A stretch of DNA of 64,000 nucleotides, taken from the NCBI GenBank assembly GCA_965116495.1, contig OZ220696.1, forward strand, positions 3,424,001-3,488,000. The letters are read 5' to 3'. A program made the position numbers and the translations under genes. Numbering within the stretch: position 1 is the stretch's first letter; each line of letters starts with the position of its first letter. Positions 3,141-37,078 of the stretch are shown here, in pieces. The notes under the pieces are model-generated. The model saw nothing but the letters and a program-made list of their open reading frames with translations, searched no databases and had not been told where the DNA came from. This stretch comes from Gammaproteobacteria bacterium (GTDB lineage Bacteria > Pseudomonadota > Gammaproteobacteria > Eutrophobiales > Eutrophobiaceae).

Positions 3141-3170
3141 TTATACACAATTATCCATTTTTATCCATAA
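3141..3170 (-). promoter_or_regulatory. 10-bp-phased TTATGGATAA-like repeat array, fadL/aldehyde dehydrogenase divergent region
   Basis: TTATACACAA TTATCCATTT TTATCCATAA on + strand. Confidence 0.55.
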
Positions 3171-3239
3171 TTAACTATTTTCTGAATAAGAACCCTGTTG
3201 TAATAGGGTATAATACCTAATCATACCTACCCAACAAAA

Positions 3240-4670
3240 ATGAGAGAAAAAATGGAAGCTGATGAGAAAGCAAAAGCACAGAGAGCGGAAGTTGCATCGC
3301 TGATTGAACAGGCAAAGTCTGCCCAGAGGGAAATTGGGAACTACACCCAGCAGCAGGTTGACGAACTTGTCACTGCAATCTGCTGGGCAATAGTGCGCCA
3401 GGACCGTGCTGAAGAGCTTGCCAGGATTGCCGTGGATGAAGGCGGGTTCGGCAACTACGACGACAAGGTGATGAAAATACGCAACCGCTGCATGGGTACG
3501 CTGGCAGACATGCAATCGGTTAAGACAGCCGGGATTATTGAGGAAGATCCTGACAGGGGATTGCTCAAAATCGCCAAGCCGGTTGGCGTGGTTGCGGCAT
3601 TGATACCGACAACCGGTCCGGATGCAACCCCTCCGTTAAAGACGCTGCTGGCGGTAAAGGGCCGCAATGCCATCATCGTTGCCGCCCATCCCCGCACCCA
3701 GCAGACTACCGAGTTGACCGTTAAATATATGCGTGAAGCCTGTGAACAGGCCGGTGTGTCGGCAGACCTGGTGCAGGTGATCCGGAAGCCGTCGCTTGGA
3801 AAGACACAGGCGCTGATGGAGATGGCTGATCTGGTGGTTGCCACAGGCGGCGCCGGCATGGTGAAAGCGGCTTACAGCTCCGGCACGCCGGCCTATGGCG
3901 TCGGCGTTGGCAACAGTGTGCATGTTGTTGATGAAACAGGAGATTTACAGGATGCGGCCAATGCTGTCACGGCTGCAAAAAAGTTTGACTACGCCACGTC
4001 CTGTCTTGCTGATAATGCCGTAATAGCGCATGATACGATTTATGATGATTTTGTCGGCAGGCTGAAAGAGATGGGAGGATATCTTTGCTCAGCCGATGAA
4101 AAAAGGCAGCTACAGGAGTTGATGTGGCCTGATCCTGACAATCATATACCTGCCCTGGAAATTATTGCCAAGCCCGCGACGACTATCGCAAAACTGGCAA
4201 ATATTGAGGTGCCGGATGATTGCGGCTACCTGATTGTGGAAGAGACGGGAGCGGGTCCGGATCATCCTTTCTCGGGAGAGAAGCTTTCTTCAGTGCTGGC
4301 GCTATACAAGTATTCAGGCGAAATAGACAACGCTATTGACCGGATAAATACAATCACAGATTACCAGGGGCAGGGTCATACCTGTGGTATCCATTCAAAG
4401 ACTGAGGAAAACATCATGGCGGTCGCGATGAACACCAAAACAGGCCGCGTCATGATCAACCAGAATCTTAACGAAGGTGCGGGTAGCCCGCGTAACGGGC
4501 TACCCTATACACTAAGCCTTAGTTGCGGTACCTGGGGTGGAAATATCACTACCGAAAATGTCAATGCGCGCCACATGATAAACGAGACCTGGGTATCAAG
4601 GCCCGTTACTCCACGGGCAATAGACGAAGAATCGCTGTTCTCGGAACATTGGGACAAGCATGGAAGGTAG
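3240..4670 (+). CDS. CoA-acylating aldehyde dehydrogenase (AdhE-N/EutE/SauS-like)
   Basis: KPVGVV, ATGGAGMVKAAYSSG, catalytic Cys in FDYATSC, GEKLS, LSCGTWGGN. Confidence 0.85.
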   Translation: MREKMEADEKAKAQRAEVASLIEQAKSAQREIGNYTQQQVDELVTAICWAIVRQDRAEELARIAVDEGGFGNYDDKVMKIRNRCMGTLADMQSVKTAGIIEEDPDRGLLKIAKPVGVVAALIPTTGPDATPPLKTLLAVKGRNAIIVAAHPRTQQTTELTVKYMREACEQAGVSADLVQVIRKPSLGKTQALMEMADLVVATGGAGMVKAAYSSGTPAYGVGVGNSVHVVDETGDLQDAANAVTAAKKFDYATSCLADNAVIAHDTIYDDFVGRLKEMGGYLCSADEKRQLQELMWPDPDNHIPALEIIAKPATTIAKLANIEVPDDCGYLIVEETGAGPDHPFSGEKLSSVLALYKYSGEIDNAIDRINTITDYQGQGHTCGIHSKTEENIMAVAMNTKTGRVMINQNLNEGAGSPRNGLPYTLSLSCGTWGGNITTENVNARHMINETWVSRPVTPRAIDEESLFSEHWDKHGR

Positions 4671-4707
4671 TGAGACAGTGCTGCGACAGTATTCCGGTAA
4701 TGATGGG

Positions 4708-4753
4708 TTATGGACAACATAGATTATGTGTGAGTATGAAAAAATATGGTATA
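4708..4753 (+). promoter_or_regulatory. TTATGGACAA plus degenerate phased TATG repeats upstream of the regulator
   Basis: TTATGGACAA at 4708-4717; TATG at 4725, 4735, 4745. Confidence 0.5.
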
Positions 4754-4790
4754 ATTAACCGTTATACAATAATTCTCCTTGAGGGGCCAT

Positions 4791-5591
4791 ATGCCGGCAC
4801 AGAAGAAATTCCTTACTATCACCGAAGCAGCAGATTACCTTAAAGTCAGTAAAACCTCATTGCGACGCTGGACAAACAACGGCCGCCTCGCCTGTTATCG
4901 CGTCGGTCACCGCAATGAACGCCGATTCTTACTCGACGACCTCGTCGCCTTTATGGGTGAATCCATAGATACGGGCGATTATCAGGATGGTTCTCGAATT
5001 ACTGCATCCGACGCAACCCAACCTGTTAACCAAAGCGCCCGGGCCACACGTAAACATATCTGTACTTTTTTCAAGAGTCCCAAAGAACAGTGGGGCCTGT
5101 TGCGGATGCATCTGCTCGATCATCTCAACTCTGAAGCAAAAACCGTCTATATCTATCAACGGGATAAACAGCAACTGTTGAACTGGCTCAGGAACGAAGA
5201 CCTGGACCCGGAAGATTTGATTGATCGTGGCGTACTTGAATTGTATACCGATGCTGATACGTATTTGAAAGACGGCCACTTCAGTACCGATCGTATGTTG
5301 TCCTTCTGGCAGGATATCATTACCAGGCACGAGGCATCCGGCACCAAGAGGTTACTTCTTACGGGTGAGATGGGCTGGGCCAGCAGCGGCGTTATGGGCT
5401 GTGAACAACTGGTTCCGTACGAGGCAGCCCTGGACGCGATGCTGGAAGTTACCCCCTGGGTCAGCGTAATTTGTCAATATCCTGTCTACCAGTTCTCAGG
5501 TTCCACGGTATATGACAATTTGTGCGTACATACACACGTACAATTGGTTGATCGCCTGGACACCGGTTTCAGCCCGATCGGCACAAGCTGA
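4791..5591 (+). CDS. HTH_17 (excisionase/BldC-like) plus MEDS (DcmR-type sensor) regulator
   Basis: N-term LTITEAADYLKVSKTSLRRW..G.L...R.G...RRF; C-term HICTFF...TGEMGW...YEAAL...ICQY...HTH. Confidence 0.8.
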   Translation: MPAQKKFLTITEAADYLKVSKTSLRRWTNNGRLACYRVGHRNERRFLLDDLVAFMGESIDTGDYQDGSRITASDATQPVNQSARATRKHICTFFKSPKEQWGLLRMHLLDHLNSEAKTVYIYQRDKQQLLNWLRNEDLDPEDLIDRGVLELYTDADTYLKDGHFSTDRMLSFWQDIITRHEASGTKRLLLTGEMGWASSGVMGCEQLVPYEAALDAMLEVTPWVSVICQYPVYQFSGSTVYDNLCVHTHVQLVDRLDTGFSPIGTS

Positions 5592-8007: not shown

Positions 8008-8047
8008 TTATGGATAATTAATTATAGTTATGAATAATTATTTATAC
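8008..8047 (+). promoter_or_regulatory. Phased repeat array in the xecC/etnA divergent promoter
   Basis: TTATGGATAA 8008-8017 and TTATGAATAA 8028-8037; TTA recurs every 10 bp. Confidence 0.6.
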
Positions 8048-8158: not shown

Positions 8159-9172
8159 ATGAACGCTGCAAATTTGCCTGGTAATCGGCATTTCACCTGG
8201 TTTAAACCGGAAAGACGCAGACCCACAGATTACGAATCCTACACATTAGGACAACAGTCAGGCCCTCATCAATGGCTGGATGTTGATTGGCCCCTTTGTT
8301 TTGATGATGGTCAAGAGCCTTTCACAGAAGCTGCCTCAGAAATAATATGTACTACCTGGGATCAATTTCGTGATCCCATGAAAGTATGGCAAAGGCCTTA
8401 TGTCTCTCGAAACAACCATGAAGAGCAGGCACTGGACGGCATGACAAAACAGGCTTTGCAGGACGGTGTTGCCGACCGCATCAATCCTGTCTGGCGGGAT
8501 GAAATTCTGGGTAAGTATTATGCAGCATGGCCTTTTGTGGAGTATGGCCAATTTTTAGCGATATGTTATGCAGTACGGCAGGTACTGGATGCAACACTCA
8601 CGTTTTCGTTGGGGTTTCAAGCTACAGATAAAGTGCGCCATCAGCAGGATATTGTGCATCTGATTTTTGATTTAAAGGAAGCGTTACCCGGTTATTCCGA
8701 TGAACAAGCCAGGTCAGCCTGGATGAATTCTCCCGCGCTTGTTCCAACTCGTGAAATAACCGAACGCCTGATCGATTCCGATGACTGGGCGGAGATAGTC
8801 ATTGTTTTGGGGCTGGTGTTCGAGCCGCTCGTCGGAAATTTATTCAAAACCGAATTCATGACCAAGAATGCGCCCATAAATGGGGATGCAGTCACGCCCA
8901 TGATTCTGGCGAATGCGCGGCGTGACTCTAAATATCACCTGCAACTTGTTCAGGCAATTGTCAATATGGTTTTGGCTGACTCAAAACATGGAGCTGACAA
9001 TAAAAAGATTATTGGAAGCTGGCTGGTAAAATGGACACCGCTGTGCGAAACAGCAGCGCAGTCATTGCAAACGGTTTTCGAGATTGATGGAATTGATGCT
9101 GAACCTTTTGAACAGGGATTTACCCGGGTTAAAAACATGCAATCATCGCTGGTACAAGAGCTTGGACTTTAA
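8159..9172 (+). CDS. etnA: Alkene monooxygenase hydroxylase beta subunit
   Basis: FTWFKPERRRPTDYESYT, WDQFRDP, SDIMO beta features; operon order. Confidence 0.85.
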   Translation: MNAANLPGNRHFTWFKPERRRPTDYESYTLGQQSGPHQWLDVDWPLCFDDGQEPFTEAASEIICTTWDQFRDPMKVWQRPYVSRNNHEEQALDGMTKQALQDGVADRINPVWRDEILGKYYAAWPFVEYGQFLAICYAVRQVLDATLTFSLGFQATDKVRHQQDIVHLIFDLKEALPGYSDEQARSAWMNSPALVPTREITERLIDSDDWAEIVIVLGLVFEPLVGNLFKTEFMTKNAPINGDAVTPMILANARRDSKYHLQLVQAIVNMVLADSKHGADNKKIIGSWLVKWTPLCETAAQSLQTVFEIDGIDAEPFEQGFTRVKNMQSSLVQELGL

Positions 9173-9188
9173 ACGAGGAGATATAATT

Positions 9189-9488
9189 ATGATTTCAAAT
9201 AATAGTGTCGGTATCTCATTGATGAAAAGTGATGAAACACGTGCGACCCTGGAATACCTGGAAGAAAGTGCAAGTGATGCTCGCGTGAGTGATCGTGACT
9301 GTTATTACAAAGTTGAACGTGATAATAAACTTGAATTTGACATGGAAGGGATATCGGATTTCCTGGGCCGTGACCTTGATACGGATATTTTCCTGGTAAA
9401 TATGAGCTCTTACTATGGCCGAATTGTTGTTTCTGATGGAAAAGTTGAAATTTTCTCAGAAATAAAGCCCGAACGCTTCAACGACTGA
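9189..9488 (+). CDS. etnB: Monooxygenase coupling/effector protein (MmoB/DmpM family)
   Basis: VGISLMKSDE, VNMSSYYGRI; GAGGAG RBS supports ATG 9189. Confidence 0.88.
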   Translation: MISNNSVGISLMKSDETRATLEYLEESASDARVSDRDCYYKVERDNKLEFDMEGISDFLGRDLDTDIFLVNMSSYYGRIVVSDGKVEIFSEIKPERFND

Positions 9489-9501
9489 TGGGAGAGATTT
9501 A

Positions 9502-11016
9502 ATGACTGCTAATCTGGTGGAAGTACATGAAAAGGCAAAAGATTACGATTGGGATTTTTCGTTTGCGGAAAAAAGGCCGAAGTTTGACACAAAATATAAT
9601 ATCCCGACGAAAGGCAAGGACCCTTTTCGTATGCTGGTGAGGGATTACATGAAGATGGAAGCCGAAAAGGATGATCGCACCCATGGGTTTATCGATGGCG
9701 CGCTGAGGATGGGAATAGCGGAAAAAATGGAACCAAGGTTTAACGAGTGTTTGAAATTGACACTGTTGGACCTGGGCAATGCTGAATATGTGGCAGTTGC
9801 AGCCTGCGGCGGCATTATTTCATCCGTTCAGAACCAGGAACTCAGGCAAGGCTATCATGCGCAGATGCTGGATGAAATTCGTCATACCCAGCTGGAAATG
9901 GCCTTACGTAACTATTATGTAAAGAATGTTCCTGACCCGGCCGGGTGGGATCTTGGACAAAAAGCTCTGTTCCAGCATCCCGGCGGGCTTGTCGCAGTAG
10001 GTGAGTTCCAGCATTTCAATACCGGTGATCCCATAGATTGTATTATTGACCTGAATGTTGTAATTGAAACTGCTTATACCAATATCCTCCTGGTCGCTGC
10101 GCCACAGTCGGCAGTCCTGAATGGCGATCATGCCCTGGCGACAACATTTCTTTCAATTCAATCCGATGAAGCGCGGCATATGGCGAACGGATACGGCTCG
10201 TTGATATCGGTCCTGCGTAATGAGGAGAATGTGCCGTTGGTTAACGACGCCCTTGAACGCCATTTCTGGCATGCGCACAAGGGACTGGATGCGCTGGTCG
10301 GATGGCAGTCTGAATACGGTTCCGTAAATCGTGCATGGGCTTACAGAGATCAATGGCAGGAATGGATTGTCGATGATTTTGTCGGGGGTTACCTGGAAGG
10401 CCTGGGTGAATTCGGCGTAGAAGTGCCGAGGTTTCTGGGAAAGGCCGTGGAAGATCTTGACTGGATGACCCATACCGTCGGTCAGGTATTTTCAGCCATC
10501 TGGCCGCTGAATTTCTGGCGTTCCGATGCCATGAATGAAAAAGACTACGAATGGTTCGAGAAAAATTATCCCGGCTGGCATAAATACTTTGGCGCATACT
10601 GGGATGGCTATAAACAACTGGCGGATCCGGCCGGTGGGCACATCATTTTGCAGGAGTTGGAAAGTCTGCCGCCGATTTGCCAGGTTTGCCAGTTGCCCTG
10701 TGCGCTGCCAAGACTGGATATCAATGAATTCCGCCTGGTTGAAGTCAATGGATCACAGTATCCGACCTGTAGTGAAGGATGTGAATGGGTATTGAGGAAA
10801 TGGCCGAAGGCCTATACCCGGCGCAAGCAGTTCTGGCACAAGTATCACGGCTGGGACCTGGCTGATGTCATTTCAGATCTCGGCTATATCCGCCCTGATG
10901 GTAAAACCCTGATAGGCCAACCTACGGTTTCTCCGGATCAAAAGATGTGGACGATAGATGACATCCGGGCGCTTAGATACGAGGTCAAGGATCCGCTTCA
11001 TGGAGTCTGTCACTGA
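9502..11016 (+). CDS. etnC: Alkene monooxygenase alpha subunit (soluble di-iron monooxygenase, group-4-like)
   Basis: Di-iron motifs DEIRH and DEARH; WFEKNYPGW; GKTLIGQP; beta-coupling-alpha-reductase order. Confidence 0.88.
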   Translation: MTANLVEVHEKAKDYDWDFSFAEKRPKFDTKYNIPTKGKDPFRMLVRDYMKMEAEKDDRTHGFIDGALRMGIAEKMEPRFNECLKLTLLDLGNAEYVAVAACGGIISSVQNQELRQGYHAQMLDEIRHTQLEMALRNYYVKNVPDPAGWDLGQKALFQHPGGLVAVGEFQHFNTGDPIDCIIDLNVVIETAYTNILLVAAPQSAVLNGDHALATTFLSIQSDEARHMANGYGSLISVLRNEENVPLVNDALERHFWHAHKGLDALVGWQSEYGSVNRAWAYRDQWQEWIVDDFVGGYLEGLGEFGVEVPRFLGKAVEDLDWMTHTVGQVFSAIWPLNFWRSDAMNEKDYEWFEKNYPGWHKYFGAYWDGYKQLADPAGGHIILQELESLPPICQVCQLPCALPRLDINEFRLVEVNGSQYPTCSEGCEWVLRKWPKAYTRRKQFWHKYHGWDLADVISDLGYIRPDGKTLIGQPTVSPDQKMWTIDDIRALRYEVKDPLHGVCH

Positions 11017-11019
11017 CGA

Positions 11020-11336
11020 TAGCCCGCATTTATCACCAAGTCGCTTATTGCTATCCGAAACATGATTGCTGTCAATAAGTTATAGTTATATTCACACGAT
11101 GTCATCATTACAGACTGCGCTTGATGCGCCCTCGCTTGTCTTTTTCCCGCCAGCGGGCACGTGCTTCCTCAACCAGAGCTACGGCTATGCTTTCGGTCGC
11201 AGGCACCCGCTGGCGGGACAAATCTGCCAGGAGCAGATTTGGACGTCCGCAGGACGCCCGCAGGGTGTGCGCCACGGAAGGCGCACATCTAAAATCCTGC
11301 GCGATCTTCGCATCACTTGGTGATAAATGCGGGCTA
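11020..11336. mobile_element. MITE family A, copy 1 (317 bp)
   Basis: Perfect 22-bp terminal inverted repeat TAGCCCGCATTTATCACCAAGT; shares about 100 bp with 14890-15080. Confidence 0.8.
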
Positions 11337-11337
11337 A

Positions 11338-12400: not shown

Positions 12401-12449
12401 GTATGGATAATAGTGAATAGTTATGGACAAATAAACACAGCTTGGATAA
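12401..12449 (+). promoter_or_regulatory. Phased repeat array upstream of etnE
   Basis: GTATGGATAA TAGTGAATAG TTATGGACAA ... GCTTGGATAA. Confidence 0.6.
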
Positions 12450-13691: not shown

Positions 13692-13714
13692 CGGTATCTG
13701 TACGTAGTAAACAT

Positions 13715-13745
13715 GCCGCGGGAACCTGCGACAGGTTTCCGCGGC
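13715..13745 (+). terminator. Strong stem-loop after etnE (terminator or mRNA stabiliser)
   Basis: GCCGCGGGAACCTG-CGA-CAGGTTTCCGCGGC; weak U-tail. Confidence 0.5.
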
Positions 13746-13776
13746 GATGTTTTGCCTTATCCGCTTGTGAAAACTT

Positions 13777-13971
13777 ATGCCTGTATATACCCTGCATTGT
13801 CCTGATTGTAAACGTGTATTCAAAGGCCTTGTTTTAGCCGGCACACGCGAACCTGCAGAGTGGGTGTGTTCAGTTTGCGGAGGAAATAAAGCAACAAGAA
13901 CTAATCCTGAGCAGCGAGAGGAGCACCCCCTGGAGGCAGAACACGGAGCAGGATGCCCTTGTTGTCAATAG
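13777..13971 (+). CDS. Small zinc-ribbon protein (FmdB-like)
   Basis: MPVY..HCPDC...CSVC, C-terminal HGAGCPCC. Confidence 0.75.
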   Translation: MPVYTLHCPDCKRVFKGLVLAGTREPAEWVCSVCGGNKATRTNPEQREEHPLEAEHGAGCPCCQ

Positions 13972-14121
13972 CCCGCCCGGGCGACTGCCAACATCTACAG
14001 AGACGACGAGTGGAAGTCCGCCGCGATTGATGGGCGGCGGTGCCGGCGGGTGCTTCGGATCAGCCAATCCTCGAGCCCCGGGGAACGTCAAAGTTATCAA
14101 TAACACAACGGGAGAATAGAA

Positions 14122-15080: not shown

Positions 15081-15089
15081 AAGGAGGTA

Positions 15090-16866: not shown

Positions 16867-16886
16867 ATACCGGCTCGGAGCGAACA

Positions 16887-22543: not shown

Positions 22544-22551
22544 CTATCCCC

Positions 22552-24712: not shown

Positions 24713-24719
24713 TGAGAGA

Positions 24720-27145: not shown

Positions 27146-27163
27146 AAACTTGTTAAGTTACCC

Positions 27164-27191
27164 GTCATTCCCGCGCACGCGGGAATCCAGT
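27164..27191 (+). repeat. REP-like palindrome
   Basis: GTCATTCCCGCGCACGCGGGAATCCAGT. Confidence 0.75.
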
Positions 27192-27211
27192 CACACATTT
27201 ACCTTATCCTC

Positions 27212-29035
27212 ATGTCCATCGATTGGCATAAAACCCGCGCCGTCATCCAATTCCTGTTTGTAACAACCGGCGTGCTGCTGTCCGCATCCATCGCGGTTGC
27301 ACTATTCGGTTATGTTCGCAGTTCTCCCGCCCATTACTCAAGCTTCGTGCTCGGCATCGTCATCATGTCAGGTCTGCTCGGCCTGCGAAACCTGCTGGAT
27401 GAGCACCTGCAGGACAACAGGGGCAGGTACTTTCACGTCAAAAGTGTCGTTGCCGTTGCCGGTTTTATCCTGGCTGCAACAGGCGCCGTCTACATCCGTT
27501 ACAACGTATCAAGGCTGGAGCTGATCCAGCCGTTTTTTGAGAACATCGACGTGGTTTACGGTTTGATTTTTACGGCCGGGATCCTGTTGCTCACCATGCT
27601 GCACTGGGGGCTCTTGCTTACCTCTATTATCGCAATGGCAATCGTCTATTTTTTTTACGGCCACCATATCGATAACGTCCTGTTTACCCATCCGCACTAC
27701 CAGACCGGCTTTGTTATGAACTATATCGGGCTGGGAACCACACAGGGCTTTTTCCTGTTGACGCAACTGGCCGCCGACAGTATTTATTTCCTGCTCATCT
27801 ATGCCAGTGTGCTGATCAGTATCGGCGCATTGCAGATGGCGCTGGAACTGGGCAAGGTATCAGGTAAAAAGGTGGCAGGTGGCGCCGCTTATCCGGCGAT
27901 CCTGGGCAGCGGGATCGTCGCCTCGGTGATGGGGCAGGCCGTATCCAACGTGGTGCTTACCGGCCGGTTTACCATACCCATGATGAAAAAAAACGGTTAT
28001 TCCGCGTCAATGGCCGGAGCTATAGAAGCGGTAGCCTCTACCGCGGGCCAGCTCATGCCGCCAATTCTGGGCTTGGCGGGTTTTTTGATCGCCGCGTTGC
28101 TCAACATTCCCTATATAAAGGTTGCAGGCGCCGCACTGTTACCGGCGTTGCTGTTTTTAACCGGCATATTCATCAGCGTGTCGCTATACGCAAGACGGCA
28201 ACAGATCCCGAAGCTGACTGATAATTTTGATGCCGGAAGCGTTATCAGGATTGCGCCTACTTTTGTTGTTTCGTTTGCCGTTGTCCTGATCATGTTGCTG
28301 ATGCACTACTCCCCATCCATCGCAGGGATGTGCGGGATCGCCGCTGCGTTGGCTCTGTCCATGTTCCAGGGCAGGTACAGGCCGACAGCAAAAAAGATTT
28401 TCGGCGCGCTGGAGGAAGGGTTCGTGCTCGTTACGCTGTTGTCGTTGCTGATTATCGCCATCGGTCCCCTTGGACAGACCATGATCACAACGAATTTATC
28501 CGGACGTCTCGGTTCAGTCCTGGTCAATATCCTGCCGGATGCCCCGTTACTTCTGCTGGTCGGGGCCATGGTCATCACGCTCATACTGGGCATGGGCCTG
28601 CCTACCCCCGTCGCTTACGTCGTGACGGCCCTTGCAGTGGTGCCGTTTCTGCAGCAACTGGGGTTCCCTGCGTTTCAGTCGCACTTCTTCGTGTTTTATT
28701 TTGCCGTGTTCTCAACGCTGACGCTGCCCATTGCCGTTGGGGTGCTGGCTGCGGCCAAACTGGCCGGCTCCAGGTTCATCCCCACCGCCGTCAATGCGTT
28801 AAAATTGACTTTTCCGGTTTTTCTTATTCCCTTCGCGGTGATCTACAACCCGGAACTCTCCATGATTGACGACTGGACCTGGCGCACGCCTGTGTTGTTC
28901 GCAGCCCTGGTTGTTATCCAGGCATGCATTGCAGCCGCTATATTCGGTCCGGCCTCCGGACATTCCAGGCCGGCTCAGCGGGCATTCCTCCTGCTTGTTT
29001 CCTTAGCGGGCTTTTATTTCTTGTTTTTGAGCTGA
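27212..29035 (+). CDS. TRAP transporter fused permease (4TM/12TM type)
   Basis: TIPMMKKNGY..AGAIEAVASTAGQLMPP, LGMGLPT, HFFVFYF. Confidence 0.88.
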   Translation: MSIDWHKTRAVIQFLFVTTGVLLSASIAVALFGYVRSSPAHYSSFVLGIVIMSGLLGLRNLLDEHLQDNRGRYFHVKSVVAVAGFILAATGAVYIRYNVSRLELIQPFFENIDVVYGLIFTAGILLLTMLHWGLLLTSIIAMAIVYFFYGHHIDNVLFTHPHYQTGFVMNYIGLGTTQGFFLLTQLAADSIYFLLIYASVLISIGALQMALELGKVSGKKVAGGAAYPAILGSGIVASVMGQAVSNVVLTGRFTIPMMKKNGYSASMAGAIEAVASTAGQLMPPILGLAGFLIAALLNIPYIKVAGAALLPALLFLTGIFISVSLYARRQQIPKLTDNFDAGSVIRIAPTFVVSFAVVLIMLLMHYSPSIAGMCGIAAALALSMFQGRYRPTAKKIFGALEEGFVLVTLLSLLIIAIGPLGQTMITTNLSGRLGSVLVNILPDAPLLLLVGAMVITLILGMGLPTPVAYVVTALAVVPFLQQLGFPAFQSHFFVFYFAVFSTLTLPIAVGVLAAAKLAGSRFIPTAVNALKLTFPVFLIPFAVIYNPELSMIDDWTWRTPVLFAALVVIQACIAAAIFGPASGHSRPAQRAFLLLVSLAGFYFLFLS

Positions 29036-29063: not shown

Positions 29064-29306
29064 CTATGACCGGTGAAGGGCATCATCCGGCTTGGCGCAG
29101 CACGGGTCACTCTGCTGTATCGGCGGGCATTTAACCGTGCCGTAGGAACAGAATACACAACAGTCGCCCGGTTTTGGCTTCAACAACGTATCGCAGTTTT
29201 CGCACTGGTAAAACCACTGGCAGGCATCAGCCGGCATTATTTCCGTTTTTTTGTGGTTACAGCCAGGGCATGTAATCTCTGATTCCAGCGTGACGAACCG
29301 GTCTAT
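29064..29306 (-). CDS. GDCCVxC-domain Cys-rich protein, no canonical start codon (possible pseudogene)
   Basis: Hand translation: ..LESEITCPGCNHKKTEIMPADACQWFYQCENCDTLLKPKPGDCCVFCSYGTVKCPPIQ..CC; first codon ATA overlaps the upstream TAA. Confidence 0.75.
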   Translation of the reverse strand: MDRFVTLESEITCPGCNHKKTEIMPADACQWFYQCENCDTLLKPKPGDCCVFCSYGTVKCPPIQQSDPCCAKPDDALHRS

Positions 29307-30064
29307 TACTGTTTCCGTGATAAATACTTTACCGGAACGGCAAAGGATATGACACCGATAGCTATTCCAAGGAGCCAGTTCAGAATGCCGTTATCCCCGC
29401 CATACCGGTTGGGGTTTCTTGCCGCGGTGAGCCCGGGAATGGCGGGTATGTCGCCACTGCCGTTGCCCACCACGAGCTGGGCCTTCATGCCTTTTTCCAT
29501 GTGGGCAGCCATGTCACAGTGGACCAGGTAGGTCTTGTCATCGCTGGGAACGATGAACGTTCCTGTCTTGCTGAAGCCGCCGTTGGTCTCAAGGTGGAAC
29601 ATGCTCTGCGGGTACAGGTAACTGGGCAGACCGTGTACCATCCATTGGTGCCTGACATCATCCTCGTTGGTATATGTCACGGTGATGCGTGAACAGGGTT
29701 TGACGCGCCACTGGTGTTGATTGAAGCCGAATGTCCTGTCCGGATAAGGCGCTGCATACTTCTTGCCGGCCGACACGCTGATTTCCACGTCCTCAGAAAT
29801 CGCGCGGCAATCGCGCGGCAGTTCATCCCTGTTTTCATTCATCACCATGCCTTCCATGTCCAGTTTCATGTTGCCGCAGGCGCCTTCGCCGCAGCGTCCT
29901 TCACCGCACATGCCTTCGCTATCCATGTCCATCCGGCTGTTTTTTTCAACCTCCTCAAGCTGGAAGGGGTTTTGTTCCGCACTAACGCCGGGCTGGGACC
30001 ACGGGTTGACCAGGATGGAGGCCGTAACCAGGGCCAGGGGATTTAATGCCTGTTTAATCTTCAT
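29306..30064 (-). CDS. Exported, membrane-anchored cupredoxin with N-terminal EGxCG repeats
   Basis: Type-1 Cu ligands H(QWMVH)..C-x4-H-x4-M; signal peptide; C-terminal TM helix. Confidence 0.8.
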   Translation of the reverse strand: MKIKQALNPLALVTASILVNPWSQPGVSAEQNPFQLEEVEKNSRMDMDSEGMCGEGRCGEGACGNMKLDMEGMVMNENRDELPRDCRAISEDVEISVSAGKKYAAPYPDRTFGFNQHQWRVKPCSRITVTYTNEDDVRHQWMVHGLPSYLYPQSMFHLETNGGFSKTGTFIVPSDDKTYLVHCDMAAHMEKGMKAQLVVGNGSGDIPAIPGLTAARNPNRYGGDNGILNWLLGIAIGVISFAVPVKYLSRKQ

Positions 30065-31751
30065 TCTTTCTCACCGTCCGGATGAGCAGGATTGTCACGG
30101 CAAGAAACAGCCCCGCCGTGATTGCAAACAGGATCATCCTGCCCGGCAGCGCCGTTTGTTCCTCAAGGTCGGAAAACCGTCCCCCGGGGTCCATATCACC
30201 CCAGACGGGTACCTGGCGCCGGTAGTATTCCTGGTTGAAAAACAGGGACAGGTCCCCCGCCGTTTCAGGAATCCCGTCCTCTCCCAGGAACTTCTCATAG
30301 ACAATCATGCTGATATCCCCGCCGGGGTTCATGCCGTCGGTAGTCACTGCCTGCTCACGATGGTCGTGGATGAACCAGACCCCCTCCCCGTAACTGTGCA
30401 GGCCGTCATTAACTGTATTCAATTCGAGGTCCAGGCGCTGGGCCGCGCTCAGCCATACGACGTCCCGCGTCACCCGGGCAACCGGGTTCTGTTCGACGCC
30501 GTCGTAATGGGTAATGGTGACCTTGTGGCCGTGGGTGTGCAGTGATACGCCCTCAGCCCCGGCATTGAGGACGCGCAGTTTTATTTTTTCATCCGGTTTG
30601 ACCAGTACCAGGGATTCACGCATGGTGTAGGGGAAAGAACGCCCGTTAAGCAGGAAGTATTCGGGAACGCGCCCGGTGGTGTTGTATTCGCGGTTGGTTG
30701 CTTTAGCGATGAACCGGGGGTCGCTGCTCTGTTGTATGAGTTCATGTAATTCCTTATCCGCTTCGCTGTACTGCAGGTCGTATTCCCTTGCATAGTTTTC
30801 CCTGACGGCGGCAGACGGGTAACGGACGTGACCGGCGCCCACGTTGAATGTCTGCACCCGGTTGTCCGGACGGTTCTCTTCGACGACGAACATGCCCTGC
30901 AGTCCCATCAACACGTGTACCTGTGGTTGCACATGACAATGGTAGAACATGGTGCCGGTCTGCCGCGGCGTCATGTCATAAGTCCGGCTCTCACCGGGCA
31001 TGATCATCATCTCACTAATCCTGGGAACACCGTCGTTGCCTTCTCCCTGCGCATCCTGGTAGGGGTGGTCCACGCCATGAAAGTGAATGGTATGCGGCAT
31101 ATAGTGGGTATTTTCCAGGGTGACCCTCAGTCGATCGCCCTGTTCGATCCGGATCACCGGAGACGGCAGGCGCAGCATCTCGTTAGCCTCGATGCTTTCG
31201 AAGTTGACCGTAGCCATCCCCCGCTGTTTGGGGGTGAACACCCAGAATCCGGGCTGGATACCCGGGGCGACGGAGTAGGCAGGAATAAACTCTTTCATAT
31301 CAGGAGAATGACCGTTCAATTCGGTTACTTCCAGGCGGATATGGATATCGTCGGGGTCACCGTCGTTGTCGATATCGTTTTCCTTGACAACAGCATCCGG
31401 GGCAAGCTGTGTACGCATCAGGACAGGCATTGACACATTATTCGTTCCCTTGACAAAAGCGGCGATTTCGGCGGGATTATCCGGCTGGCACAGTCCTGAT
31501 TCCTGGATCCTGAGCCCGTCAACCAGTTGTTCTGTGCGCCAGTTCCGGTTAACCGGCGGGCACGTCTCTTCGGGTTCAAGTAATAAGTCTGCCTGGCTCG
31601 CAGGCGCCGGGATATAGCCGCGCCCACCGAATATATCGAAATAATCCTGCTGCAGACCCGACGGTATCCAGTTGACCGGAACCAGGTAAACCAGGCAAAC
31701 AAGTAAAACAAGATTGATTATCGACAGTGTAATAACACGCTTATGCCGCAT
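30054..31751 (-). CDS. Multicopper oxidase
   Basis: HTIHFHG, FYHCHV..HV.MG, HTHGH, HDH. Confidence 0.88.
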   Translation of the reverse strand: MRHKRVITLSIINLVLLVCLVYLVPVNWIPSGLQQDYFDIFGGRGYIPAPASQADLLLEPEETCPPVNRNWRTEQLVDGLRIQESGLCQPDNPAEIAAFVKGTNNVSMPVLMRTQLAPDAVVKENDIDNDGDPDDIHIRLEVTELNGHSPDMKEFIPAYSVAPGIQPGFWVFTPKQRGMATVNFESIEANEMLRLPSPVIRIEQGDRLRVTLENTHYMPHTIHFHGVDHPYQDAQGEGNDGVPRISEMMIMPGESRTYDMTPRQTGTMFYHCHVQPQVHVLMGLQGMFVVEENRPDNRVQTFNVGAGHVRYPSAAVRENYAREYDLQYSEADKELHELIQQSSDPRFIAKATNREYNTTGRVPEYFLLNGRSFPYTMRESLVLVKPDEKIKLRVLNAGAEGVSLHTHGHKVTITHYDGVEQNPVARVTRDVVWLSAAQRLDLELNTVNDGLHSYGEGVWFIHDHREQAVTTDGMNPGGDISMIVYEKFLGEDGIPETAGDLSLFFNQEYYRRQVPVWGDMDPGGRFSDLEEQTALPGRMILFAITAGLFLAVTILLIRTVRKNED

Positions 31752-31822
31752 AGTCCTGGTGTTTCTTGAAATGTGTAAGAATGGTACAGCGTTTTACACT
31801 TGTCGGGAAGCCGGATGGCCGA

Positions 31823-32437
31823 TCAGGAAGCCTGCTGTTTCTCCTTTCTCTCTTTTTCCTGTTTTTTTACGGTATACCACATCACCAGGCCGGCTGAGAC
31901 AAGCAGTATGGTGAACCACATGCGTGAAGGATTAAATCCGTCAACTCCCAACCCGTAACCGACACCGAAAGGGAATACGGAGATGTATTCTTTGTCGTTA
32001 GGAATATCGTCAACCTTGACCATACCGATAAAACGGCCGGGTTCGGTGAAGTTGTATTCAACATTGAATGAGCCCGTTCTCCTCAACTCTGAGGGGAGGT
32101 AATAGACGGTATTCCGTTCTATATCAGTTTCACTGCCCAGGTCGTCTAATGTTGCGTAATTGCCGATATCGTTGACATCTTCAATGATACGGAAATCTAT
32201 CGCCATATCCCGTAATTGATTATCGATGTAGTCCAGGACAATAATGGCGCTGCCCACGTTGGGTATGTCCTCGCAGAACTCTTCACTCTGGGTTTGCTCA
32301 GGTTGGAAACCGGTAAAATGCATGAGATAAGGACCTGCCTTCAGCACGCACATATCATCCTCGATAGCCACGCCGCCGTGTGCCAGCACGGTCTGGGAGA
32401 GAAAACTGCAGCAGAAAATAATCAGTAACAGGCGCAT
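31823..32437 (-). CDS. pmoD: PmoD/AmoD-family copper protein
   Basis: AHGG...DMCVL...MHFTGFQP...FCEDIP, C-terminal TM helix; directly after CuMMO B. Confidence 0.85.
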   Translation of the reverse strand: MRLLLIIFCCSFLSQTVLAHGGVAIEDDMCVLKAGPYLMHFTGFQPEQTQSEEFCEDIPNVGSAIIVLDYIDNQLRDMAIDFRIIEDVNDIGNYATLDDLGSETDIERNTVYYLPSELRRTGSFNVEYNFTEPGRFIGMVKVDDIPNDKEYISVFPFGVGYGLGVDGFNPSRMWFTILLVSAGLVMWYTVKKQEKERKEKQQAS

Positions 32438-32463
32438 TGTATCTCGAAACTCACCTTGCCCGC

Positions 32464-32496
32464 CTGCCTGTTAATCGATCCGGATAACAGGCAGAC
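32464..32496. terminator. Stem-loop between CuMMO B and pmoD
   Basis: CTGCCTGTTA...TAACAGGCAG inverted repeat. Confidence 0.45.
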
Positions 32497-32518
32497 GGTC
32501 AAGGATAACAGGGTTTGT

Positions 32519-33748
32519 TCAAATGGCAGTGAACGTCGGAATTAACGGACCGCCGAATGTCTGCTTATGGCGTTTACCGTTTTCATCATAGAAAAACAGC
32601 ATGCCGCCGAAGCGGCTGTCCGGATCGTATATCAGCAACGCGAGGCGTTCCGTCTCCCAGGCGGCATCAGTTGCAACGATATTCAGGGTCCTTGTCTCAC
32701 CCGGCTGTATGGGCGTGTCGCTGTCGACTTCCAGTCCGTTCAGGGCGATCAGGTCCTGGGGATACGGACCGACATCCGGGGCAACATCCGCGTTCAACCA
32801 GCGGATAGATGCCGTCGCGAATTCACCCAGCCTTACCGGGCTGGTGGCCCCGTTGGTCACATTGACAGTCATCCTGACGCTGCGGCCGGGAATATCATAA
32901 TGGGCTTCCTGCAATTCGACCTCAACCACATCCTCGTCGACAGGTAACGGGTTCAGCTCCATCAGGCCCGCCTGCAGGGGAACGGTGATCGGGAATTTAT
33001 CGATGGTGCTGAAGTAACCGTAGAATATTAACGCCAGCGTGAGAATTCCCAGTCCCATTCCTACTTTTCTATCCATGGGCGTAATCAGTTCATCTTCCCG
33101 CCCCTGGCGCAACAGGATATTCCTGCCGGCCAACAACGGTCTGCGCAGCCACCATACCAGCCAGAACGCGGCGAGGAGCGCCCATAATATGTGCCAGTTG
33201 CGTACCCTGCTCCAACCCCAGGTCTCAAGATCCACCGTTTCGCCTGTCAAGGTGGTCACGGGGTTCGTGAAGTCGGCAGCGTCGCCTGTTATCTCGACCC
33301 AGTTGCCCGGGCCGGCATTCGGTCCACCATCTTTTATATTGAGCATGGGATGGAGATGGTGCATGCCGGGACGGCGCGCCTTCATCACAATTTTATACTC
33401 GTAGTCCCGGCCGAGTTCGTAACTGGCGGAGCGCACCATCGGTTTGCCGTTTACCCAGACACCTTTTCGGACAAACACCGGACCGGGGACGTATACGTGC
33501 ATGAAAGCAACGTCGGGTTTGGCGATGGCTTCCGGCCAGCCGGTATGCAGGTGAAATTTACCCGACAGGACCACTTCCTCATTGACAGCCACCTTATCCG
33601 TGGACCATTTCGTATCGTACCATTGGACGCTGAGCATGCGCAGGAATGGTTCCTGGGAGCGTTCACCGTGGGCGTTCACCAGTGATGCAGGCGCAATCGA
33701 CAGCAGGATTAATGAAATAATACCCAGGTTTGTAATTTTACGTCTCAT
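32519..33748 (-). CDS. pmoB: Copper membrane monooxygenase subunit B (PmoB/AmoB family)
   Basis: Mature N-terminus HGERSQEPFLRM, HxH CuB ligands, DPDSRFGG. Confidence 0.93.
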   Translation of the reverse strand: MRRKITNLGIISLILLSIAPASLVNAHGERSQEPFLRMLSVQWYDTKWSTDKVAVNEEVVLSGKFHLHTGWPEAIAKPDVAFMHVYVPGPVFVRKGVWVNGKPMVRSASYELGRDYEYKIVMKARRPGMHHLHPMLNIKDGGPNAGPGNWVEITGDAADFTNPVTTLTGETVDLETWGWSRVRNWHILWALLAAFWLVWWLRRPLLAGRNILLRQGREDELITPMDRKVGMGLGILTLALIFYGYFSTIDKFPITVPLQAGLMELNPLPVDEDVVEVELQEAHYDIPGRSVRMTVNVTNGATSPVRLGEFATASIRWLNADVAPDVGPYPQDLIALNGLEVDSDTPIQPGETRTLNIVATDAAWETERLALLIYDPDSRFGGMLFFYDENGKRHKQTFGGPLIPTFTAI

Positions 33749-33818
33749 TTTATCTTCCTCGTATTTTCATCAACTCAGTTTATTTTTACACTTGTTATTC
33801 AGGTCGCGGCAGGGTGAA

Positions 33819-34565
33819 TCAAACCCTGCCTTTAATGAACTTGACCGAAGCGACAAGTTTTGCAAACTGGTTGAAGACAAAATAAACGAGAATGCAGGCA
33901 AAGGCGCAGAAAAAGGCCGACACCGGTGTCACGTCCTGGCCGAACGTTCGCAGTGTTCCTTTCTCTATTATTCGAATATATTCCGGCGTACCCGTCCGGA
34001 TATATTCAAACCCCTGCACATCAGCAATCGACATCAGGACACCGTGATAATCGACGGGCAAGTGGAACGCGCCCAGCATATACCACTGGGATGGATAAAA
34101 CAGGATGCCCCATGACCAGGCTCCCAGTACGGCAGTCAGCACGTAGCTGTTGGTAAACATCAGGACCAGATCGAGAATGATGGCGCTGGGGAGCAATGTA
34201 CCGGGCCAGACAAAATTCAACGGATAGTACACCCAGCCGGCGAAGTTGTTGACCCTGTCAATCCACTGGCCCAGCAACAGGCACACCACCATCAGGGTGG
34301 CGCCAAAGGGGACACGGCAATGCTGCCACAGGATATACTGGCCCACAACGGGAAAGACAAGGGTGGACAGCGGAACGACGAATAACCACCAGCGGCGGTC
34401 CTTCCAGTCAGTCCAGAAAGTCCAGTCACCGACCGATAACATCTGGTGCAGGTGGTGGATGCCGGTCAGCAGGGTTAAGAAAATAAAAACGAGGATATAG
34501 TCAAATGCTCGGTGTACTCGATAAGCTTCTGCATAGGAATCAACGCCAGGCGCCACTGTTCTCAT
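33819..34565 (-). CDS. pmoA: Copper membrane monooxygenase subunit A (PmoA/AmoA family)
   Basis: GDWTFWTDWKDRRWW, YIRTGTPEYIRIIEKGTLRTFG. Confidence 0.93.
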   Translation of the reverse strand: MRTVAPGVDSYAEAYRVHRAFDYILVFIFLTLLTGIHHLHQMLSVGDWTFWTDWKDRRWWLFVVPLSTLVFPVVGQYILWQHCRVPFGATLMVVCLLLGQWIDRVNNFAGWVYYPLNFVWPGTLLPSAIILDLVLMFTNSYVLTAVLGAWSWGILFYPSQWYMLGAFHLPVDYHGVLMSIADVQGFEYIRTGTPEYIRIIEKGTLRTFGQDVTPVSAFFCAFACILVYFVFNQFAKLVASVKFIKGRV

Positions 34566-34617
34566 AGCTACTCCCCCTTCGTCAAAAAATCAGCCATAGT
34601 TTACTTCTTTGTTTACG

Positions 34618-34656
34618 AAAAAAAAACCGCCGGCGTGTAACCTAAGCCGGCGGTTT
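34618..34656 (-). terminator. Intrinsic terminator/attenuator between CuMMO C and A
   Basis: AAACCGCCGGC / GCCGGCGGTTT stem with A9 run (U-tail on minus strand). Confidence 0.7.
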
Positions 34657-34670
34657 CTCACACAGCTACT

Positions 34671-35495
34671 TCAGTCCACCATATCGTGGTGATGCGGCAT
34701 GGGCTCATTCGTTATTTCCTTAGCTTCGAAATTCGTAAGCTGGGTTATACGATACATGAGTTGCAGCATCAAGCCACCCAGGGCAAGACCGGTCCAGGAC
34801 AGAGTCACAAACCCCCAGTGCAACGGGGCGCTGAACAACTCTTCCATAAACCAGAATGTGTGGCCCCATTCATTCAGGCCGACATTCGGCAGAATGAGAA
34901 AGGGTCCGACAACCGCAATGGTATGAGGTAATGAAATACCCTCTGCGAACTGCGGCAGCCTGGTTCTGGCATAGAGCCACGAGCCTACACCCAGGATGAT
35001 ATATACAGGGAAGCTCAAGTAGAACAGAATGATATGGCTGGGCGTGAAATCGGAATCCCGAATCACGGTCTGGTGCCATGCACCGTCCTGCTCCGCGAAG
35101 TAACTGGCAGCCCAATATACAGCATAGGTGTAACAGGCCAGCCACACCAGCAGCTTGAAGTGGCGACGGATCTCTTCCATCGGCTCCAGTTGGTCAAGGT
35201 GGCGATCCCTGGTTTTCCAGAGATAGCCCCAAATGCCAAAAGCAGCTATCGCGCCAACGGCAACTTCCGCATAGAACAGACTCATCCAGTAAGCCTGGAA
35301 ATCCATAGAGAAAGAGTCCAGACCTTTAGTCCATGCGAAGACCTGCTCATAGATTCTGACCGCGACATACATCAAAGTGATGAATGCCACACCAAAAAGC
35401 CAGTGAGCGCCGTTGATGATACCTTTAAAGCTGGTGAGGATCGGCTTTGGCTGATCTGCCTGATATTGAGCAACCGCTTCTGTAGTTGCTGACAT
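34671..35495 (-). CDS. pmoC: Copper membrane monooxygenase subunit C (PmoC/AmoC family)
   Basis: EQDGAWHQ..RDSDFTPSH, PNVGLNEWGHTFWFMEELF..PLHWGF; AGGAGG RBS supports ATG 35495. Confidence 0.94.
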   Translation of the reverse strand: MSATTEAVAQYQADQPKPILTSFKGIINGAHWLFGVAFITLMYVAVRIYEQVFAWTKGLDSFSMDFQAYWMSLFYAEVAVGAIAAFGIWGYLWKTRDRHLDQLEPMEEIRRHFKLLVWLACYTYAVYWAASYFAEQDGAWHQTVIRDSDFTPSHIILFYLSFPVYIILGVGSWLYARTRLPQFAEGISLPHTIAVVGPFLILPNVGLNEWGHTFWFMEELFSAPLHWGFVTLSWTGLALGGLMLQLMYRITQLTNFEAKEITNEPMPHHHDMVD

Positions 35496-35626
35496 AAGAT
35501 ATCCTCCTAACTTAAGGTTAAACAACAATTTGTCGACAAATCATCGTCCTTATCCGAGGCCAGCGGTGCAAAAATACAATCGCCCCCCCGGCGCATAATT
35601 TCCAGAGTTTCAGCCGGTTAAGACTG

Positions 35627-35656
35627 ATTTGGATAACTATGGATAACGACGATTAA
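35627..35656 (+). promoter_or_regulatory. Phased repeat array upstream of the CuMMO operon
   Basis: ATTTGGATAA CTATGGATAA CGACGATTAA. Confidence 0.55.
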
Positions 35657-35787
35657 CAAAGTATAGTGTAACGGGTTTGAGAGAGTCAAGTATTTTTTGC
35701 TATTTTTTTGCCGGTTTTTCCATAACTCCGCAGTTTATTGAACTTATACAGCCGAATCAATGAGTTAATGGGACATAGTGGGGAAAA

Positions 35788-36981
35788 CTACCGATAAACA
35801 ACGCGGTAAACCATGCCGGTATAATCGTCCGAGATGTAAATTTCTCCGCCGATGCCTTGCGCCACGTCGACAGGCCGGCCTATGACGTCCTCATCGATTT
35901 CGAAACCGCTGGCGAATTTGCGTTCCAGTATGCCGCCATCTTCCCGGAAATGCAGGGATACGACTTCGTAGCCCTGGCGTTCGCTCCTGTTCCATGAGCC
36001 GTGCAGCGCCACTAACAGCGCCTGCCGGTAATTTTCCGGTAGTTTGCTGTTACGCAGGAAAGCCATCCCAAGCGGCGCCGTATGTGCGGCAAAGCCGTGG
36101 ACCGGCGCAATACTCCCCCGTATTTCGGCTGTCCTGTTCCCGCCCAAATCAGGATCGGGAACCCTGTCCCCGTTGGCATACGGCCAGCCGTAAAAACCGC
36201 CCCGCTCAAGCAGATTGAGTTCGCACGGTGGATAGTCATCGCCCAGGAGATCACGGCCGTTATCCACGCCGTAAAGTAACCCGGTATCCGGTCGCCAGTC
36301 GAAACCGACCGTATTTCTCAGTCCGGATGCGAAGATTTCACTTCCGGATCCATCCGGGTTGAAGCGTAAAATCGCGGCCCGGCGCGGGTCGTTTTCGATG
36401 CAGACGTTGCAACTTGAACCGACGGACACGTAAATCAGTCCATCCGGACCGATCCTGACGCTGCGGCTCCAGTGATTGCCTCCCCGCGGCAATCCGCTCA
36501 CAATCTGCTCATACTGCCCGGACGTTGAGCGGTTGTCACTGTCAAACCTGATCCTGCCGAGGGCGTCGGTTTCGGCAATAAACAACCAGCCATCGTGAAT
36601 ATCCAGACCGTGGGGGCGGTCGAGGTTCGAGACGAGGTCGATTTGGCCGTCGCTTTTCCCGTCACCGCCGTCATCCCGCTGCAACAGGACAACCCTGCCG
36701 GAGGCCGGTAAACTGACCAGTACATCGCCGTTGTTCGTAACCTCGAGCATGCGCGCGCCGGGCAGTTCTTCTGCAAAGACGTTAATATGGAAACCCTGCG
36801 GCAATACAATCCTGTCGGCCAGCAGTTGATCATCCGGAGAATTTATGCCGGCAGGATTGAACGGCGCGTTTGTAGCAAACCGCTCCGGCAGGAACAGCCA
36901 GAACAGGAGCGCGGCCACACCCAGGAAAAATAAATCTCTTAAAAGCCGTTGCAGTCCCCGCATAAAATCTCTAATGTGCAT
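35788..36981 (-). CDS. PQQ-dependent sugar/sorbosone dehydrogenase family beta-propeller
   Basis: VGSSCNVC, ASGLRNTVG, YGWPY, HGSWNR, GRPVDV. Confidence 0.85.
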   Translation of the reverse strand: MHIRDFMRGLQRLLRDLFFLGVAALLFWLFLPERFATNAPFNPAGINSPDDQLLADRIVLPQGFHINVFAEELPGARMLEVTNNGDVLVSLPASGRVVLLQRDDGGDGKSDGQIDLVSNLDRPHGLDIHDGWLFIAETDALGRIRFDSDNRSTSGQYEQIVSGLPRGGNHWSRSVRIGPDGLIYVSVGSSCNVCIENDPRRAAILRFNPDGSGSEIFASGLRNTVGFDWRPDTGLLYGVDNGRDLLGDDYPPCELNLLERGGFYGWPYANGDRVPDPDLGGNRTAEIRGSIAPVHGFAAHTAPLGMAFLRNSKLPENYRQALLVALHGSWNRSERQGYEVVSLHFREDGGILERKFASGFEIDEDVIGRPVDVAQGIGGEIYISDDYTGMVYRVVYR

Positions 36982-37048
36982 TGATAGGCCGGAGACAGAA
37001 TGTGTCTGTCCCCGCAGGTGTTATACAGCAAAGGCTGCCTAAAATATA

Positions 37049-37078
37049 TTATTCATAATATTACTTTATTATCCTTAA
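37049..37078 (-). promoter_or_regulatory. Pair of motif copies 20 bp apart
   Basis: TTATTCATAA 37049-37058 and TTATCCTTAA 37069-37078. Confidence 0.45.

Follow-up and report, generated by a model that had tools for sequence, protein, structure and literature searches.

We analysed a window of 64,000 nucleotides from a gammaproteobacterial genome (assembly GCA_965116495.1, contig OZ220696.1; G000:C1:3424001-3488000, all positions below being window coordinates), which carries an alkene/epoxide island from 1.5 to 29 kb and, next to it, the operon of a copper membrane monooxygenase (CuMMO). Seven promoter regions of this island carry an array of three to four tandem 10-bp direct repeats with the unit NWWWGNNYAR, e.g. 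TTATGGATAA. The array is a real cis-regulatory element that is conserved across phyla. It is probably the operator of a repressor, the HTH_17-MEDS protein encoded in the island, which would control the island promoters together with the CuMMO operon and be released by an alkene-derived ligand. Besides this regulator, the island encodes a FadL-like channel, an acylating aldehyde dehydrogenase (aldh), a short-chain dehydrogenase/reductase (SDR), an XecC-like oxidoreductase, a four-gene di-iron monooxygenase, EtnE and the genes for coenzyme M (CoM) biosynthesis. Coordinates are collected in Table 1.

Table 1. Arrays, promoter and genes of the window (ORF, open reading frame; aa, amino acids; PQQ, pyrroloquinoline quinone)
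Feature	Position	Strand	Description
Array 1	3141..3180	-	between divergent fadL-like and aldh genes; units AAATAGTTAA TTATGGATAA AAATGGATAA TTGTGTATAA
Array 2	4708..4747	+	regulator's own promoter; just upstream of -10 TATAAT 4750-4755
Array 3	8008..8047	+	between divergent xecC-like oxidoreductase gene and di-iron monooxygenase operon; units TTATGGATAA TTAATTATAG TTATGAATAA TTATTTATAC
Array 4	12401..12440	+	etnE promoter; units GTATGGATAA TAGTGAATAG TTATGGACAA, fourth weak
Array 5	35627..35666	+	pmoC promoter; units ATTTGGATAA CTATGGATAA CGACGATTAA CAAAGTATAG
Array 6	37039..37078	-	between divergent genes of PQQ/sorbosone dehydrogenase and 40-aa membrane microprotein
Array 7 (new)	43311..43350	-	units ATCAGATAAA TAAAGATGAA TTATGGTAAA CAAAGATAAA
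Predicted sigma70 promoter of pmoC	35660..35689	-	TTGACT-N18-TATACT
Regulator	4791..5591	+	266 aa; HTH_17 (Xis/BldC-type winged helix) and MEDS sensor; predicted array binder
Soluble di-iron monooxygenase operon	8159..12357	+	gene order beta, coupling protein, alpha, reductase
etnE, Cys-rich small ORF, SDR, CoA transferase, comA, xcbC/D/E	12579..29035	+	also acyl-CoA ligase, oxidoreductase, TRAP/TAXI transporter
CuMMO operon	29306..35495	-	pmoCAB, 204-aa ORF, multicopper oxidase, 252-aa ORF
PQQ/sorbosone dehydrogenase (gsdh)	35788-36981	-	

The repeat array and its specificity

The repeat copies described in a sequence-only reading of this DNA, at 3151/3161 (reverse strand), 4708, 8008/8028, 12401/12421, 35627/35637 and 37049/37069 (reverse strand), are present and intergenic, as is a copy at 3141 (reverse strand). 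Their claimed spacing of 10 or 20 bp holds and is more regular than described, with runs of three to four units at an exact 10-bp period; a copy listed at 12440 lies 19 bp off phase and is changed in two of four relatives. All six regions listed were recovered, while the seventh array had been missed and the regulator's own site (4708) turned out to be the weakest.

With at most one mismatch, the 10-mer has 12 matches in the window where 3.4 are expected, a number reached by none of 100 shuffles. As a single sequence it is common, with 17 exact and 334 one-mismatch copies genome-wide, hence the signal lies in the phasing and the exact 10-mer was rejected as the unit of significance; only the arrays are specific. 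Pairs on the same strand, 10 or 20 bp apart, with at most two mismatches per copy and three in total, occur six times in the genome, and all six fall within 3141-37078.

The repeat unit was determined de novo with a Gibbs sampler for tandem arrays, using two promoter sets from which the genus of the window was left out. The first comprised 25 non-redundant regulator promoters of a soil clade, whose regulators are, in 24 of 25 cases, 61-90% identical to proteins of clusters with Ktedonobacteraceae as the named members; the second comprised 20 proteobacterial aldh/etnE promoters. Both yielded one unit, YTRWWCWWWR, the reverse complement of which, NWWWGNNYAR, includes TTATGGATAA. The log-likelihood ratios at period 10 were 392 for the soil set and 328 for the proteobacterial set, compared with 164 and 145 at period 9 and 215 and 156 at period 11; the window arrays also score far lower at periods 8, 9, 11 and 12 than at 10. 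The unit carries one near-invariant G (0.92 and 0.72 in the two sets) in AT-rich DNA. It is directional, six of the seven arrays scoring below zero on the opposite strand. A palindrome model (TTAT-NN-ATAA) was therefore rejected; only the divergent xecC/etnA site works both ways.

A combined matrix from distant genomes was used to scan the 4.34-Mb genome (G000). Among four-unit matches pmoC ranks 1, fadL/aldh 3, etnE 4, xecC/etnA 5, gsdh/microprotein 6, 43311 7 and the regulator promoter 9; with three units, etnE moves to rank 1 and the regulator promoter to 16. The match at rank 2 (962329) falls within the coding sequence of an acyl-CoA ligase and was put down to chance; the remaining matches outside the window that were inspected formed no coherent regulon. 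The arrays also withstood the AT-matched background that the sequence-only reading had proposed as a check. Of the intergenic segments containing a 60-bp stretch of at least 75% AT, 5/6 within window positions 1-45 kb, but 0/241 elsewhere, reached the threshold score of 15. The pmoC segment, which with 70% AT falls outside the matched set, scores 19.6 (p=0.001).

In alignments of five genomes of the genus (four for pmoC and gsdh), 203/240 columns are invariant within the arrays versus 567/1117 in the flanks. Array 1 is invariant in 40/40 columns in five genomes and array 5 in 39/40 in four, followed by array 6 (36/40) and array 4 (35/40), while array 3 keeps its phased cores in the more distant genomes G014 and G007 despite many substitutions. 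Array 7 is kept in 3/3 relatives; it is less certain, because all its units deviate at one consensus position.

The HTH_17-MEDS protein as predicted binder

We consider it highly probable that the arrays are bound by the regulator encoded at 4791-5591, which has an N-terminal HTH (HTH_17 match, E=5e-13) and a C-terminal MEDS domain and is the only HTH_17 protein above the Pfam cut-off in the genome. It shares 35% identity over 269 columns with Xaut_4864 of Xanthobacter, and regulators 78-92% identical to it occur in metagenome-assembled genomes of Gammaproteobacteria. The recognition segment is invariant across 36 homologs. Profile matches to solved structures include 8JBS, a cobalamin-binding HTH protein, the Xis-like Gp37 (4J2N, E=0.0014) and 6AMA (E=0.046), a chain which we take to be BldC from its residue pattern. 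The structure model (pLDDT 84) has three helices and a beta wing, a disordered linker of 26 residues and then the MEDS domain. In the weak match to BldC (E=0.046), Phe21, Val23, Arg30 and Trp31 align to the invariant residues L17, V19, R26 and W27, and E12/K18 are present for the BldC pair Arg22/Glu16. The predicted MEDS fold, residues 85-262, matches RecA/KaiC-type domains (FlaH, KaiC C1; TM-score ~0.45, 11-14% identity), which could bear on how the regulator oligomerises.

The array accompanies this regulator across genomes. Among 80 metagenome loci of the regulator family, etnE is found in 61 and some etn/CoM gene in 67, and the array unit emerges de novo at the regulator's own promoter in the Ktedonobacteraceae-like clade. 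Co-occurrence was assessed with the soil-clade matrix alone, an array being called at p<0.05 against 200 dinucleotide shuffles in at least one of two promoters. By this measure it is present in 13/13 regulator-bearing proteobacterial clusters, in 2/23 etnE-bearing genomes without the regulator, and in 0/4 MEDS-only clusters (one at p=0.050). The two positive regulator-lacking genomes are closely related to G438, which bears the regulator, and contain the array of that genome in decayed form; two of 23 also equals chance expectation. Kin are not independent, the negatives falling in about five lineages in a quick aldh tree. G509, G673 and G739, for which no locus was returned, and G614, in which no aldh was found, were left out, and G696 and G641 entered with one promoter each. 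In a phylum-wide sample, only weak MEDS-only matches to the regulator were found besides G000 (11/400 other genomes).

A blind scan gave the same picture in a cultured strain. The plasmid pXAUT01 of Xanthobacter autotrophicus Py2 was absent from the training of the matrix, and all 316 kb were scanned. The top five three-unit matches lie at 266543 (xecA copy 2), 73273 (upstream of xamoA), 80985 (xecA copy 1), 80665 (Xaut_4864) and 299291 (a third CoM cluster); the soil-only matrix ranks four of these sites 1, 2, 3 and 5. A second copy of the regulator in Py2, Xaut_5016 (L225 20001-20750), seems to carry a frameshift shortly after its start, and its annotation lacks the HTH.

Some observations fit less well with such a pairing of array and protein. 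In G440 the regulator is unlinked, and neither the aldh nor the etnE promoter has an array; the regulator of G472 is an orphan lacking an array (no etnE was found in that genome); the cluster G749:C2 lacks an array directly upstream of aldh; and 2/25 soil promoters have none. Likewise, the BldC match is weak, and the wing contact of BldC, Leu43/Gly44, has no aligned counterpart. On balance, the proposal of the sequence-only reading that the arrays are the operator of the local HTH_17-MEDS protein is well supported by evidence of a purely comparative kind, namely the de novo unit, its presence and loss together with the regulator, the Py2 scan and the single HTH_17 protein in the genome.

Three further observations were made. 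The orphan regulator of G472 (L202 13281-14400) is preceded by what looks like a short aldh remnant. Upstream of etnE, the soil clade (L051-L104) has a second conserved leader element (TTAGTTGCG...TTAGTCACAAAACAAAG-like), which may act as RNA or be bound by a different factor. Several regulator-lacking methanotroph clusters (L157-L171) share a different conserved aldh promoter motif beginning TTGACG, which suggests a replacement by another control.

Promoter geometry and the sign of control

The sigma70 promoters discussed here are predicted matches to the consensus. In 38 of the 39 distant promoters with both a strong match and an array, the array overlaps the region from -36 to +20. The distant promoters are mostly close to consensus (TTGAC-N17-TAnnnT), their -10 or start site being covered by the array. 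In the window the array overlaps 7/10 predicted promoters, including that of pmoC, the exceptions being aldh, gsdh and the 43311 gene. Array 1 overlaps the predicted fadL -35 (3150-3145); on the aldh side, the predicted start site (-10 TATAAT 3209-3214) has the array ~50-80 bp upstream. Array 3 extends over both the -10 predicted for xecC (8026-8021) and the etnA -35 zone (-10 TATAAT 8048-8053). Array 5 lies in reverse orientation over the pmoC -10 and the predicted start site (-13..+16), in a promoter whose hexamers are both invariant in four genomes while the spacer varies. Array 6 covers the -35 zone of the microprotein gene (-10 TATAAT 37088-37093), and array 7 is located just upstream of TTGACA-N17-TAACTT (43303-43275), the predicted promoter of two genes, one for a 115-aa membrane protein and one for a DUF2231 protein.

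From the overlap of the arrays with predicted promoters we infer a repressor that is released by an alkene-derived ligand; given binding, a mainly repressive role is likely. The regulator would bind the three to four tandem repeats head-to-tail, with one winged-helix domain per 10-bp repeat, the invariant Arg26 reading the conserved G as Arg30 of BldC does. The disordered linker would allow several heads to be arranged side by side on the same DNA face, in the manner of CarH. Bound in this way, the regulator would block RNA polymerase at the overlapped promoters and thereby repress the di-iron monooxygenase, the CoM-dependent epoxide pathway, its own gene and the CuMMO operon. Binding of an alkene-derived ligand to the MEDS domain, more likely an epoxide or CoM conjugate than the alkene itself, would then lead to release. 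In Methylohalobius, which has an HTH-MEDS regulator, ethylene reportedly induces etnE up to 220-fold (PMC11507031).

Alternatively, the same protein may bind the arrays and activate in response to a ligand, or it may have a dual role, repressing at etnE/xecA, pmoC and its own gene and activating at the monooxygenase and aldh promoters. We consider this unlikely, although several points weigh in its favour and against repression. The etnA, aldh and regulator promoters lack a good, canonical -35 and have the array at or above that zone, which fits activation. At aldh and 43311 the array is located upstream of the -35, array 7 occupying -72..-43, and upstream of xamoA in Py2 it lies ~460 bp from the gene, with a weak -10-like hexamer after it. 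The overlap in 38/39 distant promoters is also partly built in, as the scanned regions measured only 110-230 nt. Furthermore, a review takes Xaut_4864 for an activator, on the ground that only propylene-grown cells produce it (PMC8784404). However, the same expression pattern would be explained by an autorepressor, which its ligand also induces, and the near-consensus promoters whose -10 or start site the array covers speak against activation. The review also reports that in Py2 cosmid complementation led to constitutive growth on epoxypropane, which implies negative control; it describes the regulation of the alkene/epoxide genes, and whether alkene or epoxide is the inducer, as unresolved (PMC8784404).

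The CuMMO operon and the reach of the proposed regulon

Given binding, control by the HTH_17-MEDS protein very probably extends to pmoC, to judge from the sequence of its promoter. This CuMMO is divergent: among the best 120 of 1768 matches, PmoB is at most 55% identical to any protein outside its own clade. Within the genus, the CuMMO is present in all five genomes with the full regulator, and a search with pmoA found it in 0/17 of the other genus genomes. An array was detected at 0/9 other pmoC promoters, eight of these from regulator-bearing methanotroph genomes; hence the array is not a generic feature of CuMMO promoters. By their description, ethylene-growing Haliea strains with pmo-like genes provide a precedent for an alkene-linked CuMMO (PMC4036023).

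It is quite improbable that the operator is real for the etn/CoM genes while the pmoC site and those further along are passengers or do no more than coordinate neighbours, with little bearing on the role of the CuMMO. This reading draws on the fact that all cases of CuMMO plus array belong to one genus and, where contiguous, to one island, and no second CuMMO clade with an array was seen among the pmoC promoters scanned. A class-wide pmoA search returned matches at 38-52% identity in 9/300 other genomes, none of this CuMMO clade, and their promoters were not scanned. G992, an unpublished genome in its results, supports none of the claims made here. Passengers would hardly be expected to include the best four-unit site of the genome, with all but one of its columns invariant, over a conserved promoter and adjoining no gene start other than that of pmoC. 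The claim that the array independently places the CuMMO in the alkene regulon is supported as to membership, for which the rank, the invariant columns, the conserved promoter and the array-free pmoC promoters elsewhere speak; its independence is smaller than stated, with one genus and the same island.

RNA contigs of close relatives cover pmoCAB in four runs that were chosen by their pmo match, two of them labelled sponge metagenome. Contigs of two studies end at 35632 and 35653, near the predicted pmoC start (~35653) and not at one place, and the four runs hold only scraps of the etn cluster. As such contigs can neither rank genes nor map a start site, neither observation was used as evidence.

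A further possibility is that another factor, an OmpR/PhoB-type response regulator or DnaA, binds the arrays and the HTH_17-MEDS gene was merely co-inherited, which we regard as very improbable. Response regulators also bind phased direct repeats, and TTATCCATA is one base from a DnaA box (TTWTNCACA, a 9-mer that clusters at origins), of which one true copy lies at 3141. Yet no response regulator is encoded among the 52 window ORFs scanned, only one of the three consensus DnaA boxes in the window falls within an array, and ~0.5 Mb or more separates them from the extremes of the GC skew. The array also stands at the regulator's own promoter in another phylum, with a unit that is not DnaA-like there, and it fades where the regulator is lost. 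In favour of another factor, CpxR-like sites have been predicted at the etnE promoter of Methylohalobius (PMC11507031). Finally, chance periodicity of AT-rich promoter DNA has a negligible probability: single units are indeed common, with 978 of at least 8 bits genome-wide, but the AT-matched background and the blind recovery on the Py2 plasmid refute it, and the strict 10-bp period and the directionality also speak against it.

Several neighbouring features deserve mention. The 40-aa membrane microprotein (37236-37358, forward strand), whose predicted promoter carries array 6, is 88-95% identical in three relatives and has no NCBIfam match; from its position near the CuMMO one may speculate that it is a candidate accessory subunit. 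The 115-aa gene after array 7 is 97-99% conserved in relatives, and array 7 itself is contained in a cox2/cox1/SCO cluster followed by small membrane genes (42352-46568, reverse strand) that is syntenic in three relatives. Further on, a reverse-strand stretch (46635-59722), in which the scan found no arrays, encodes a benzoyl-CoA epoxidase-like pair (PaaA_PaaC and ECH matches), presumably boxBC, and after it a type I restriction-modification system together with YhcG and a PIN-domain protein. Within the island, EtnE is 69% identical to the 2-hydroxypropyl-CoM lyase of Py2, and XcbC, XcbD and XcbE pass their NCBIfam cut-offs; by gene order we take the di-iron monooxygenase operon to be etnABCD. 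A Cys-rich, zinc-ribbon-like ORF of 64 aa (13777-13971, forward strand) follows etnE, and similar ORFs adjoin etnE in many distant clusters. Insertions between etn genes at 11017-11337, 14893-15089 and 22544-22660 are missing from relatives, where the genes abut; for two of the three, RNA contigs contain matching repeated elements.

The regulator type is already known as a candidate from Py2 and Methylohalobius, and the binding mode from BldC and CarH. Xaut_4864 shares the HTH_17-MEDS architecture, adjoins xecA and has the array at xamoA, at both xecA copies and at its own gene; the review names it a candidate alkene regulator, suggests an activator and gives no operator (PMC8784404). Py2 differs in its six-gene monooxygenase, compared with four genes here, and the two regions of the Py2 plasmids that were read have no annotated CuMMO. 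Methylohalobius crimeensis has an HTH-MEDS pair, H035DRAFT_2935, in its ethylene-induced etnE/CoM cluster, for which the paper predicts CpxR sites and RpoS control, and it states that other methanotroph clusters lack this regulator (PMC11507031). Contrary to this, we found the HTH-MEDS regulator in several of them, e.g. G438, G441 and G741. In G775, with the gene order described for Methylohalobius, the array lies between etnE and xecC.

BldC of Streptomyces has a related DNA-binding domain and directional, AT-rich direct-repeat arrays with one invariant G:C pair and a conserved Arg-Trp; it binds head-to-tail, reads one G with Arg30 and packs Phe21, Val23 and Trp31 (PMC5859096). It differs as a stand-alone domain on 9-bp repeats without an effector, whereas the regulator in the window has a 10-bp period and a fused MEDS domain. 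CarH is likewise a one-component repressor whose DNA-binding domains occupy three to four tandem direct repeats over the -35 or -10, and its repeat shares the G-nnn-A spacing of the array unit when the opposite strand (TGTnnA) is considered; its 11-bp period, cobalamin-binding sensor and light input set it apart from the MEDS protein, for which period 11 scores far lower (PMC9304148). DcmR of Methylorubrum DM4, likened by description, is a stand-alone HTH and MEDS repressor; its motif GATC(C/G)ATAGCCT, common to its own and the target promoter, partly resembles one array unit, but a single 12-bp motif per promoter is reported there and no array. In Mycolicibacterium NBB4, a MEDS sensor also controls the etn genes, there through two proteins: EtnR1, a PucR/CdaR-type activator, binds DNA, and EtnR2 has no HTH (PMC11197473). 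An EtnR2-like protein is 31% identical to the window regulator. No published operator, array or CuMMO link was found for the HTH_17-MEDS family in the literature searched, which largely excludes subscription journals and supplements.

With a likely operator and its exact positions in Py2 named, the question of regulation becomes directly testable in a cultured strain, and regulons can be read from sequence. As a one-protein, 40-bp switch, the system would offer a simpler part for sensing ethylene or epoxide than EtnR1/EtnR2 do. It is possible, at somewhat less than even chances, that a cross-phylum operator code defines an epoxide regulon from Chloroflexota to Alpha- and Gammaproteobacteria, which in this lineage has captured the divergent CuMMO, the microprotein and the PQQ dehydrogenase; on that reading, alkenes or epoxides would induce the CuMMO, and the enzyme would operate together with the CoM pathway and not as a methane or ammonia oxidiser. 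If true, the substrate class of a CuMMO would have been assigned from its operator alone. For this CuMMO clade, with close relatives in sponge RNA libraries, the array is the only clue to its role found here.

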